From assembly GCA_023428915.1 (NCBI GenBank), contig JAEYWL010000010.1, forward strand, positions 3,357-67,356: a stretch of 64,000 nucleotides of DNA, read 5' to 3'. The notes under the pieces were generated by a model. It had not been told where the DNA came from and did not search any database. It worked only from the letters and a program-made list of their open reading frames with translations. Shown in pieces: positions 16,147 through 19,498 of this stretch (its first letter is position 1; every line of letters begins with the position of its first letter). The DNA comes from Verrucomicrobiota bacterium (GTDB lineage: Bacteria > Chlamydiota > Chlamydiia > Chlamydiales > JAEYWL01). A program made the translations under genes and the position numbers.

Positions 16147-17105
16147 AATTTACTTCTTTTGACCATATTACGGGCAACGAAGAGGCTAAAAAATTTCTTA
16201 CCCACATGCTGGAAACAAATAGGGTAGGAAACTCTCTCTTATTTGCCGGCGCTAAAGAAGCAAACCTCGAAGCATTCGCATTGGCTGTTGCCCATAACTT
16301 AGTCGGTAATTCAAAAGAAGACCATCCCGATATTTACTCATTCCGACCAGAAGGCAAAATGGCTCTGCATAGCATTGAAGGAATGCGCCGTTTTTGCGAA
16401 GAGGTTTATCTAGCCCCTTTTGAATCGAGTTATAAAGTGTTTATCATCATTGATGCTGAACGCATGTTGCCCACAAGTGCTAACGCTCTTTTAAAGACAT
16501 TTGAAGAGCCTGCGCAGCATAGCGTCATTATTTTGACCAGCAGCCAGCCCAATGCAATTTTGCCGACGATTCTTTCCCGTTGCCGCAAACTCTATTTCAA
16601 AAATAGCGCCTCCTTAAAGCAGCACGAGAAATTATCAGACCCTTTGCTTGTCCTGCTTTCCCGCACCCCCGGCATCTCTTACATAGAGTTAAAAGAGTCT
16701 TTATCCGTGCTGGTCGCTGCCATTGAAGAAGAAAAAAAACAGGCAGAACAAGAGATTAGGCAGCAACTTGCTGCCCATTTTCCTCAAGATATGACCGCAC
16801 TGCAAAAAGAAGCCTTTGAAAAAGAAGTAGAGGGGAGCGTAGCAACTCATACCCAAGCCGTTTTGGGGCAGATGTTTGCGCAAATCTTTTTCTGGTATAG
16901 AGATCTGCAGCTTTTACAAGTATCCGGTAAACCTGATCTATTGCACTTTCCTGTCTATTTACAACATTTAGAACAGCAGCTCCAGTTCGGCGGTTTGCCT
17001 TCCCTTGAAACGGTCGAGCAGGCCATCAAGGGCGCCAAACAAGCCATCGCCCGCTTCAACCCCATCAATGATAGCCTGGAAGCCCTTTTCCTGAAACTAC
17101 ATTAG
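16140..17105 (+). CDS. holB: DNA polymerase III delta-prime subunit
   Basis: 321 aa, AAA+-like with a degenerate Walker A. It has the VFIIIDAERM and ANALLKTFEEP blocks and the SRC motif (LSRCRKL). Confidence 0.85.
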   Translation: MVEFTSFDHITGNEEAKKFLTHMLETNRVGNSLLFAGAKEANLEAFALAVAHNLVGNSKEDHPDIYSFRPEGKMALHSIEGMRRFCEEVYLAPFESSYKVFIIIDAERMLPTSANALLKTFEEPAQHSVIILTSSQPNAILPTILSRCRKLYFKNSASLKQHEKLSDPLLVLLSRTPGISYIELKESLSVLVAAIEEEKKQAEQEIRQQLAAHFPQDMTALQKEAFEKEVEGSVATHTQAVLGQMFAQIFFWYRDLQLLQVSGKPDLLHFPVYLQHLEQQLQFGGLPSLETVEQAIKGAKQAIARFNPINDSLEALFLKLH

Positions 17106-17427
17106 GTGTCGCTGCTGCCGCAGCTCAATATGTTTTTATGCGATAACCCCACGTTCCGGCACGCCTTTCGGCGGCCTTCACGCGGGGCTAACAACTGCCA
17201 TCGCTTCCGCGATGGTCTGTTAGCAAGATTGGTTTATATCTGGAGTGCGTCATGGTGATGCATCGCGGAAGCGATGGTCTGTCAGCAAGATTGGTTTATA
17301 TCTGGAGTGCGTCATGGAGATGCATCGCAGAAGAGATGCAAGTAGTTAGCCCCGCGTGAAGGCTCCGCAGGAGCCGGAACGTGGGGTTACTGAATAAAGA
17401 CAAATGGAGCTGCGGCAGCAGCGACAC
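17106..17427. repeat. REP array (left), a roughly 320-bp imperfect super-palindrome bounded by 21-bp perfect inverted repeats
   Basis: GTGTCGCTGCTGCCGCAGCTC lies at 17106-17126 and its exact complement at 17407-17427. The interior holds nested GC-rich hairpins and two tandem 62-nt units (17209-17270 and 17271-17332). Confidence 0.85.
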
Positions 17428-17436
17428 AAAAAAATC

Positions 17437-17891
17437 TCATCCCAACACAAACCTCTCATCAAATTTAACATTATGCAGCGTTAAGAGTTTTTTGTACTCT
17501 TCCTCAAATGACATTGTCGCATGATGCACTTCTTGGTTTTGAATATATTTTCGAACTTGTTCAATTGATGAAAAACTAACTGAAAATGAGCCATATCCTT
17601 CTTGCCATGCAAAATCACATGGCTGCTTGAATAGTTTTTGTGTATCCATAAAGAAGAAGAAGCTTTTAGGTCCCTAATAAAACCAGAAAATTTATCAAGA
17701 TTTGATAGCTCAATTAAGAGATGCACATGGTCTGGCATGCCGCCAATCGCTATAAGGTTACCGTGATGATTGGCAACAATACCCCCTAAATAAGGATAAA
17801 GGTGGATTTGAAGTTCAGGAGTGATAAATGCAAGGCGTTGTTTTGTTGACCAAATTAAATGAAAAAAATGTAAACGGTATGAATGTGTCAT
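17437..17891 (-). pseudogene. IS200/IS605-family Y1 (HUH) transposase of the REP-associated type (RAYT), interrupted by one frameshift
   Basis: The N-terminal half is MTHSYRLHFFHLIWSTKQR...GGMPDHVHLLIEL (HUH). The C-terminal half lies in another frame: DFAWQEGYGSFSVS...VRKYIQNQEVHH. The frames switch near 17600-17650. Confidence 0.8.
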
Positions 17892-17904
17892 ATTATTACT
17901 TTTT

Positions 17905-18176
17905 GTGTCGCTGCTGCCGCAGCTCAATATGTTTTTATGCGATAACCCCACGTTCCGGCTCCTGCGGAGCCTTCACGCGGGGCTAACAACTGCCATCGCT
18001 TCCGCGATGGTCTGTCAGCAAGGTTGGTTTATATCTGCATTTGTGTATACCAACGCTCCTTGCATTTACCCCACGTTCCGGCTTCTGCGGAGCCTTCACG
18101 CGGGGCTAACAACTGCCATCGCTTCCGCGATGGTCTGTCAGCAAGGTTGATTTATATCTGCATTTGTGTATACCAA
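17905..18176. repeat. REP array (right): third copy of the 21-bp repeat plus two 108-nt direct repeat units
   Basis: 17905-17925 is GTGTCGCTGCTGCCGCAGCTC. Units 17946-18053 and 18069-18176 are near-identical. Each carries the hairpins CCCCACG..CGCGGGG and CCATCGC-TTCC-GCGATGG. Confidence 0.85.
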
Positions 18177-18237
18177 TTCGAGCTCTTAGAGAGAAAATAA
18201 TTTCGAATATGACTTATTATAAGGTAGCAAGTCGGGT

Positions 18238-18630
18238 TTAAATAACGGGTACGATCTCCAAGTGGTATTTTGTCTCAGCAGGGTTAAAATAGCGAATTTT
18301 TCGGGACTGCATATCCACTTGATAATGAGAGATGCCCGCCATGGAAAGATCCTCTAGGAGTTCTAGATAGTTTGTCTTTCCTTCGATATGGCGTATAATT
18401 GCTTCTTTTGTCATAACATCACAAAAAACTTGTGAAGTTTGTAAAGGATGATAGCCTTTAAGTTCAGTTTTCTTAAACGAGCCAAAAGAGCCCTGAAAGA
18501 CTACATGATAGGATTGAGTTAAATGAACAATGTAGCTAGTAACTCCTGCAGTCTTTAATGCTTCAAAAGTTTTAGGAAATGGCCAATTTTGCAGTTGTGC
18601 ATTCTCTTGAATTTCTTCAATTATATTCAT
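18238..18630 (-). CDS. DUF1398-like small protein
   Basis: 130 aa with the pattern WPFPKTFEALKTAGVTSYIVHL..., reminiscent of DUF1398. It overlaps the upstream MarR gene by 14 nt, so the two form an operon. Confidence 0.5.
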   Translation of the reverse strand: MNIIEEIQENAQLQNWPFPKTFEALKTAGVTSYIVHLTQSYHVVFQGSFGSFKKTELKGYHPLQTSQVFCDVMTKEAIIRHIEGKTNYLELLEDLSMAGISHYQVDMQSRKIRYFNPAETKYHLEIVPVI

Positions 18631-19127: not shown

Positions 19128-19498
19128 TTAAGCCTCTTGAAGTGCAGCAGTTGAGTCTCTAAAGTTTAGAAGGGACCAACCTTGAATAGACTGGTTCCGG
19201 TCGCCAGAATAGATGAGATAACCTGTTGGACAACGGTCTCCGACCAGCTTCTTAAAGTAATTGAGGCGCTGTAAGAACTGTGAGTTATAAGTCGCGCTAG
19301 ACTTTACTTCAATAGGGATCAGCGGGTCTTCCACTGCCAGAAGTCTTGTCTCAGGATCTTCAAAGTTAACATAGGGTTTTCTGGGAAAGATTCCCTGACA
19401 AGCGTTGTTTTGCCTGATTGCCTAGGGCCAATAAGTGTTACCACTGGGAAATCCTGTGCCAGCTTTAATAGAATATTTTGCAAATGTCGAGGGTACAT
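19128..19498 (-). pseudogene. Remnant of an AAA-type ATPase gene (DUF4143-type C-terminus), internally deleted and frameshifted
   Basis: The N-terminal piece MYPRHLQNILLKLAQDFPVVTLIGPRQSGKTTL (Walker A) runs out of frame. The remaining piece is C-terminal-end-like: IPIEVKSSATYNSQFLQRLNYFKKL...GYLIYSGD. The roughly 300 aa expected between them are missing. Confidence 0.6.

Follow-up and report, generated by a model that had tools for sequence, protein, structure and literature searches.

A frameshifted Y1 transposase gene between inverted three-hairpin modules in a chlamydia-like genome: a probable REPtron-like unit

Among the partnerships of a transposase with miniature repeats that persist over long periods in bacterial lineages, the best studied is that of repetitive extragenic palindromes (REPs) with REP-associated tyrosine transposases (RAYTs), which is known mainly from Proteobacteria and from class 2 enzymes. 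In the arrangement called the REPtron (Nunvar 2010, Ton-Hoang 2012, Corneloup 2021), described from E. coli, Pseudomonas, Stenotrophomonas and Marinomonas, a gene for a Y1 HUH transposase lies between inverted copies of a structured repeat. Here we describe a locus of the same layout from a member of the Chlamydiae, found in a 64-kb window (the whole stretch of DNA that was analysed), where the interval from 17103 to about 18178 consists almost entirely of repeats around one small minus-strand gene. We favour the view that this locus is a decayed REPtron-like unit, in which a Y1/HUH gene of the type known as subclass 1.2 probably lies between inverted copies of its presumed cognate substrate.

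The likeness to REPtrons goes beyond the arrangement of gene and repeats. The repeats are also extragenic away from the gene (here in related contigs), and the key hairpin carries on its 5' side an unpaired foot that ends in AG, together with an essential-looking irregularity in its stem. The E. coli system needs both its GTAG foot and a bulge in the stem, and in the Marinomonas repeat REPMb strong selection is confined to the final AG of the foot (PMC8266576). In Marinomonas the REPs concentrate next to tnpA, from which the authors infer a recent arrival (PMC8266576), and the present repeats are likewise concentrated beside the gene. The differences are that the window protein belongs to class 1 (Y...Q..HH) whereas RAYTs belong to class 2 (Y...NP), that the repeat unit is a composite of three hairpins and ~115 nt rather than a single palindrome of 20-40 nt, and that its foot is YAG (mostly TTAG) rather than GTAG.

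Other described systems share parts of this picture. As with REPINs (Bertels and Rainey 2011), the gene-less copies are mostly inverted pairs with a short spacer, extragenic and accompanied by a low-copy Y1 gene; however, each half comprises three hairpins, the dimer measures about 230-260 nt rather than about 100 nt, and the enzyme is neither a group 2 nor a group 3 RAYT. TIRtrons (Di Nocera et al. 2013) likewise have long inverted repeats and moderately abundant families occurring as dimers or clusters, but TIRYT enzymes are RAYT-like class 2 proteins (subclass 2.1 in Quentin et al.), whereas the repeats of the present locus are REP-like hairpins. Within the PVC (Planctomycetes, Verrucomicrobia, Chlamydiae) superphylum, Di Nocera et al. 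(2013) report tagged REPs only from Planctomycetes and Verrucomicrobia. Our literature search found no description of RAYTs or REPs in Chlamydiae, in agreement with an earlier sequence-only reading of this DNA, which had supposed them to be uncharacterised there; nor did it find any follow-up on subclass 1.2. By sequence and by solved structure, the closest systems are the IS200/IS605 elements (IS200, IS608, ISDra2), with which the locus shares a gene bordered by hairpins and, presumably, an enzyme acting on single-stranded DNA. Their ends, however, are two different hairpins on the same strand, in contrast to the inverted copies of one module seen here; they are multi-copy and near-identical within a genome, whereas the window holds one gene copy; and the present locus has no tnpB gene.

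The transposase gene and its frameshift

The gene (17437-17893, minus strand) is of the IS200-like subclass 1.2 type and appears to be inactivated by a single frameshift. The sequence-only reading had taken two minus-strand frames to be halves of one IS200/IS605-type HUH transposase, and these do match complementary parts of the Y1_Tnp profile (PF01797): the open reading frame (ORF) of the 5' half (17481-17951; MTHSY...DHVHLL) scores 58 bits over profile positions 6-87, and that of the 3' half (17437-17649; DFAWQEGYG...YIQNQEVHH) scores 24 bits over positions 94-121. Frame 1 reads MTHSY...GGMPDHVHLLIEL...SSSLWIHKN and frame 2 reads (L)FKQPCDFAWQEGYGSFSVS...YIQNQEVHH...FDERFVLG. In a three-frame translation they join at 17632-17639, within the interval 17600-17650 where one frameshift had been placed, at an A5 run (17635-17639). 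The minus strand there reads CAC AAA AAC TAT TC, that is AAA AAC / (C)TA TTC, and relative to the 150-residue homologues, which have an unshifted WIHKN-FxxLxDFAW, the change is either -1 nt or +2 nt (TA).

The repaired protein has 151 residues. A search of it with the Y1_Tnp profile, which had been proposed as a check, gave 85 bits against a cut-off of 23. It also passes the NCBIfam model transpos_IS200 (NF033573; 60.2 bits, cut-off 55) but stays below the cut-off of REP_Tyr_transpos (NF047646; 32.5 vs 80 bits). The nearest solved structures are those of ISHp608, ISDra2 and Sulfolobus TnpA (E about 1e-12), and matches in the PDB at E<=0.01 are confined to IS200/IS605 TnpA chains. With a tyrosine motif of the form Y...Q..HH (YIQNQEVHH) rather than Y...NP, the protein is classed by sequence as an IS200/IS605-type Y1 HUH transposase, and its earlier naming as a RAYT does not hold. 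Nor does the gene start beside holB, as had been stated: holB ends at 17105, a repeat copy runs from 17106, and the 3' end of the transposase gene lies 331 nt beyond.

Because of the frameshift, the gene in the window is most likely dead, as far as its sequence tells. The competing view is that it is alive, the frameshift being a sequencing or assembly error, or else being compensated in translation by a -1 slip of the ribosome on C AAA AAC. In its favour, an alignment with 12 homologues reveals no other lesion in the reading frame: DHVHLL and Y116 of YIQNQ are invariant across this alignment, and the HUH residues H55 and H57 as well as Y116, Q120 and HH123-124 are all intact in the repaired protein. 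The shift, moreover, falls at the A5 run, and a -1 slip after AAC would give WIHKN-LFKQPC-DFAW, so retaining the WIHKN of the homologues. We nevertheless consider a living gene improbable. An independent assembly (ENA ERZ27268836; contig L003) carries the identical gene including the same frameshift, so that two contigs from different assemblies agree, and these are the only two for which a truncated transposase product is on record; none of the 120 homologues listed needs a frameshift; and the slippery heptamer is imperfect, having C instead of A in its first position.

As to its affiliation, Quentin et al. (2018; BMC Genomics 19:475) newly described a subclass 1.2 of 148 residues, characterised by the motifs DH[IV]H, WQ and YIKNQKEHH, with 1.7 copies per genome and low within-genome identity, found mainly in Cyanobacteria and Bacteroidetes, and listed as 'REP: no'; for IS200 they give 4.8 copies per genome at 99% identity. 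The window protein (150/151 residues) carries DHVH, AWQEGYG (with the WQ) and YIQNQEVHH. It also shares a conserved C-terminal tail (F.EEY..FL......D..F) with Bacteroidetes proteins of the same motifs, and its identity to proteins from Bacteroidetes and Methylococcaceae that have subclass 1.2 motifs is 31-34%. In motifs, length (~148-150 residues), tail and low copy number it fits subclass 1.2, on sequence criteria. It differs in its chlamydial hosts and in its conserved flanking repeats: the published 'no REP' trait is contradicted by the structured repeats that flank the chlamydial genes.

Anatomy and covariation of the modules

The gene had been described as bracketed by perfect 21-bp inverted repeats. 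Three exact copies of the 21-mer GAGCTGCGGCAGCAGCGACAC are indeed present, at 17407-17427 on the plus strand and as the complement at 17106-17126 and 17905-17925, where the chance expectation is 0 (matches in none of 100 shuffles). Their extent had been underestimated, as the true inverted arms (17323-17432 and 17900-18009) span 110 nt each at 90% complementarity. Each 21-mer is only the inner tip of a module of ~115 nt with three hairpins, here named h2, h1 and h0. Four such modules and one partial copy lie in the window, within 17103-18139, and these constitute the arrays of GC-rich hairpins that had been noticed around the gene.

Read toward the gene, a module consists of h2, ~9 nt ending in TTAG, h1, an A-rich spacer of ~18 nt, and h0. 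Hairpin h2 is a small GC hairpin with a GGNA loop (for example CCATCGC-GGAA-GCGATGG), and h0 is a second small GGNA hairpin (GAGCTGC-GGCA-GCAGCGACAC, the 21-mer). The long hairpin h1 has the form CCCCGCGTGAAG, variable stem-loop, GGAACGTGGGG. On its 5' side is the YAG foot, mostly TTAG and with an invariant AG; its conserved base, CCCCGCGT/ACGTGGGG, contains a G.T pair (present in 67 of 78 elements) and is accompanied by a conserved GAA/GGA internal loop, while the tip varies freely.

Two complete modules adjoin the gene with h0 toward it, in agreement with the REPtron-like architecture proposed earlier, a layout that recurs in six other loci. Module C (17316-17430, plus strand; 97.1 bits with the covariance model R1) adjoins the 3' end of the gene, with a degenerate h2 at 17323-17338, h1 at 17350-17386 and h0 at 17407-17427. 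Module B (17902-18016, minus strand; R1 107 bits, E 5.6e-23) adjoins the 5' end, its h0 (17905-17925) being 8 nt from the ATG, with h1 at 17946-17982 and h2 at 17993-18010.

That the hairpins are real structures follows from their covariation. The stems of h2 and h0 swap between ATCGC/GCGAT, GCTGC/GCAGC, GCCGC/GCGGC, GCCAC/GTGGC and CCCC/GGGG, with the GGNA loops kept. In a MAFFT alignment of 30 elements, 96.5% of the cells are paired under the three-hairpin structure as opposed to 30-50% when the partners are slid by 1-3 columns, and 10 pairs vary on both sides; none of 500 shuffles matches the observed values. Among 78 distinct elements aligned by a covariance model, an alignment that is by construction biased toward the structure, 96.8% of the cells are paired and 14 of 20 pairs vary on both sides (172 cells), which is again reached by none of 500 shuffles. 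Both h2 and h0 lie outside the pattern used to search for further copies, yet they are present and covary.

Folded as single-stranded DNA, the module gives precisely h2, h1 and h0; the z-scores are -4.5 to -5.0 for the strand read toward the gene and -3.7 for the complementary strand of the window module. The tips of h1 comprise 29 different sequences, mostly hairpin-forming. The commonest, GCGAAGC, occurs in 12 of 51 elements (L006, L008, L012, L013, L024, L036, L043) and is rated unfolded by nearest-neighbour energy models. As DNA, GCGAAGC is reported to form an exceptionally stable mini-hairpin, and its stability would favour a structure at the level of DNA over one at the level of RNA.

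The remaining repeats of the window extend the array on both sides. Module A (17103-17221, minus strand; R1 99.7 bits, E 2.6e-21) is complete and begins 1 nt past the stop codon of holB, the gene that closes the gyrA-tmk-holB block; its h0 (17106-17126) points toward holB and is followed by h1 (17147-17187) and h2 (17198-17215). Two copies of a genome-specific 'tail', GTCTGTYAGCAAGATTGGTTTATATCTGGAGTGCGTCATGG, occupy 17215-17322 on the plus strand and flank a lone h2 (17261-17277, plus strand; partial R1 match 17261-17276), the loop of which is inverted (GGAA instead of TTCC); the 62-nt direct repeats 17199-17260 and 17261-17322 are 90% identical. On the far side of the gene, module D (18028-18139, minus strand; R1 70.3 bits) is a tandem h1 (18069-18105) and h2 (18116-18133) without h0, after which the genome-specific tail runs to 18176; the segment 18061-18176 is a direct repeat, 96% identical, of 17938-18053.

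In L003, the independent assembly of the same organism, this region is longer by 222 nt and includes two additional units with an h1 hairpin, placed between holB and the gene (L003 4250-4470 vs window 17388-17430). The difference may be either true length variation or a collapse of repeats by the assembler. Logan contigs from the same organism or close relatives (L053, 11143-11220; L054, 7374-7448; L004) end 30-78 nt past holB, and L004 stops 30 nt into module A (window 17135); such ends are consistent with repeated DNA just beyond. Further along the window, at 19128-19498 on the minus strand, are two short adjoining ORFs of 59 and 68 residues. The first has a P-loop (GPRQSGKTT) and scores 24 bits with AAA_14, under the cut-off of 27; the two look like N- and C-terminal remnants of one ATPase gene, a second decayed gene nearby.

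Occurrence of the module with and without the gene

Relatives of the repaired protein number more than 2,000. Among the matches listed, the best is 78% identical, nearly all have 150 residues and lie on one or two contigs each, and the source organism, where named, is always a member of the Chlamydiae. The window itself comes from a chlamydia-like genome, as had been supposed: its GyrA is 77-79% identical to those of Protochlamydia, Parachlamydia and Rubidus, and by this measure the source is therefore identified as an uncultured Parachlamydiaceae-like bacterium, represented solely by metagenome assemblies.

Eight gene loci were examined, with homologues 63-78% identical. Modules are present on both sides of the gene with h0 toward it in seven of them (the window, L005, L006, L007, L036, L038 and L056), usually with h0 at 0-19 nt from the start or stop codon; among these, L006 belongs to a Chlamydiales metagenome-assembled genome (MAG) and L056 to the marine Chlamydiales single-cell genome SCGC AG-110-M15. 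In the eighth (L057, KR126chlam2 MAG), a module is present upstream only. The whole module-gene-module unit occurs twice in tandem in two chlamydial contigs that are unrelated to each other, L038 (1551-3049, period ~805 nt) and L056 (9868-11790, period ~1209 nt), which could be due to unequal recombination between modules, could be a by-product of copying or could be an assembly artefact. In three cases (P0001 in L005, 692-757; P0005; P0012) homologues are annotated 18-22 residues too long, because the gene caller began inside h0 and read GCTGCGGCAAGCAGC as 'AAASS'.

The gene neighbourhoods of the homologous loci are unrelated to each other. Relatives with a GyrA 80-86% identical to that of the window keep the order gyrB-gyrA-tmk-holB, but neither the transposase gene nor a module follows holB in them; on this comparative evidence the window unit is therefore regarded as a lineage-specific arrival, and we reject the idea of an old syntenic resident. 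In one relative with an 80% identical GyrA (L055, 11019-11205), a ~52-bp inverted repeat of another kind (GTAGGGCTGACTTTAGTCTGC...) lies in the spacer after holB, which suggests that the site downstream of holB repeatedly takes in small palindromic elements.

Copies without a gene were found when JGI metagenome contigs were scanned for the h1 pattern GCCCCGCGTGAAG-N(4-30)-GGAACGTGGGG. Of 36 loci recovered, 34 have no gene, a gene adjoining the match only in L036 and L038. The covariance model finds 79 elements in 257 kb of loci, intergenic almost without exception, as single modules, head-to-head dimers and tail-to-tail pairs, with several sites per contig. The head-to-head dimers, present in 11 loci with gaps of up to ~50 nt and likewise intergenic, have the look expected of a gene-bearing unit minus its gene. 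Several separate sites on one contig are seen in L014 (four modules at three sites in 10 kb), L018, L023 and L039. Viral contigs contained no match to the h1 pattern, and a link to phages was rejected on these grounds.

Some of the JGI loci can be linked to Chlamydiae. L039 carries two adjoining genes that are 57% identical to two adjoining genes of the window; a named Chlamydiae MAG comes from the SDBU01 metagenome; and the stem types beside the gene in L036 (GATCGC/GCGATC and GCGCCGC/GCGGCGC) match those of gene-less copies in the SDBU01 assembly. A variant without h0, in which h1 is followed by another conserved 3' sequence (…CCTCTCTTCCTAATTGGATCCGAC), occurs in L011 (5667-5751), L015 (5558-5653) and L016 (3275-3411). 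These contigs may come from another lineage, L016 encoding an aa3-type cytochrome oxidase that would be unusual for chlamydiae.

The abundance of gene-less copies bears on a second alternative, that the modules are host elements with a role of their own, for instance as RNA structures, terminators or sites bound by a protein, and that a Y1 gene just tends to insert into them. In the metagenome loci modules do far outnumber genes; as RNA, the conserved G.T pair would equally be a G.U pair; and REPs are documented as insertion-sequence targets (PMC1525189). We regard this explanation as very improbable, as the same layout recurs in seven of eight independent loci, with h0 toward the gene on both sides and only a few nucleotides from start and stop codons. 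Modules lie both ways round between genes, and gene-adjacent stems match those of gene-less copies in SDBU01. Rfam gave no match in 16900-18400 at E<=1, and of promoter and terminator signals only one promoter-like and one terminator-like site were found, neither exceeding the shuffle expectation.

Outside the Chlamydiae, genes with subclass 1.2 motifs were retrieved from Bacteroidetes by means of a non-natural probe, only the real proteins so obtained being used. Three of these genes (from Elizabethkingia meningoseptica, Flavobacterium arsenatis and a Lacihabitans sp.) are flanked by arrays of small hairpins (L046, 1851-1883 and 2473-2590; L048, 1697-1949 and 2499-2673; L050, 1643-1943). Their repeat, AATCCCGAAGGGATGA...ATTATAG (ATCCCGAAGGGAT...TTATAG), with CCCC in Lacihabitans, occurs in both orientations. 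The covariance model gives only weak matches at these loci (<=21 bits), and the Bacteroidetes hairpins thus represent a different sequence family. A tentative generalisation, about which we remain somewhat doubtful, is that subclass 1.2 enzymes, published as orphans, partner structured extragenic repeats of their own, so that a REP/RAYT-type partnership would have arisen once more and independently, from the IS200-like branch.

Competing explanations and biological meaning

How a REPtron-like unit of this kind would have worked can be sketched by analogy with TnpA of IS608 and ISDra2 and with E. coli TnpA_REP. Wherever DNA becomes single-stranded, as at a replication fork, the enzyme would bind h1 in its folded form, cut at a position that the 5' foot helps to select, and then rejoin the strands. 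Such cutting and rejoining would place copied or moved modules in intergenic DNA, mainly as head-to-head dimers. With the gene of the window most likely dead, the four modules beside it would be products of amplification, now immobile unless another copy supplies the enzyme. Binding, cleavage, mobilisation and the choice of active strand are here modelled on the named enzymes; the association of the gene with the modules and the intergenic, gene-less copies in related contigs are observations.

The most serious alternative, although we think it unlikely, is that the locus belongs to the ordinary selfish insertion sequences and that its long inverted repeats are terminal ones. A whole unit of ~700 bp would then jump, the gene-less dimers would be its miniature inverted-repeat transposable elements (MITEs), and nothing would be domesticated, or REP-like in the sense of being tolerated by the host. 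It would account for the position of the unit at non-syntenic sites and its absence from close relatives, for the whole-unit tandem duplicates in L038 and L056, and for a pseudogene in the window, as is common in decaying insertion sequences; head-to-head dimers resemble internal-deletion derivatives, and the NCBIfam label is that of an IS200/IS605 family transposase. However, the hairpins on which Y1 enzymes act are subterminal and lie on one strand, in place of terminal inverted repeats, and a transposon defined by terminal repeats does not predict the single modules and tail-to-tail pairs that are common here. Homologue clusters nearly all lie on one or two contigs (among the matches listed), and subclass 1.2 is of low copy number and low identity, unlike IS200 (Quentin et al. 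2018). We favour the REPtron-like explanation because of this low gene copy number together with the abundance of single modules, while conceding that the data separate it only weakly from an insertion sequence with MITEs.

Several points weigh against the REPtron-like explanation. Non-syntenic positions, tandem duplicates and decay are reasons to favour a selfish element, and Quentin et al. (2018) report no REPs for subclass 1.2. Inverted copies set the same hairpin on opposite strands, which only further assumptions would reconcile with the one-strand excision of IS608. In the 64-kb window, the covariance model (filters off) found no module outside 17103-18139, and there is therefore no evidence in it of a dispersed family in the source genome; the flanks of the other gene-bearing loci (~40 kb in total) are also without copies beyond the gene cluster. 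A scan of species-representative genomes with a 19-mer common to the four local copies gave two chance matches only (Actinomycetota, Terriglobales), which indicates that the source genome is not included in that collection. Among the JGI loci, the base of h1 was fixed by the search pattern, and its invariance in L008-L043 is partly ascertainment; the match in L028, in coding DNA that is GC-rich, is probably due to chance; and the chlamydial links cover some loci only, L013 being GC-rich and L016 encoding the aa3 oxidase. On balance, the observation made in the sequence-only reading is confirmed, and the interpretation then placed on it is partly supported.

On a practical level, the modules break short-read assemblies and cause spurious N-terminal extensions in gene calls. 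The interest of the locus lies less in the decayed copy of the window than in the conserved three-hairpin module and its tie to a subclass published as repeat-less. If the association is functional, it would provide a candidate DNA substrate for the whole enzyme subclass 1.2, and one that is rich in information (a foot, a G.T pair, an internal loop and two auxiliary hairpins) for the study of how Y1 enzymes read single-stranded DNA. It would also extend a REP/RAYT-type phenomenon to the Chlamydiae, obligate intracellular bacteria in which repeats and mobile DNA matter for genome evolution.

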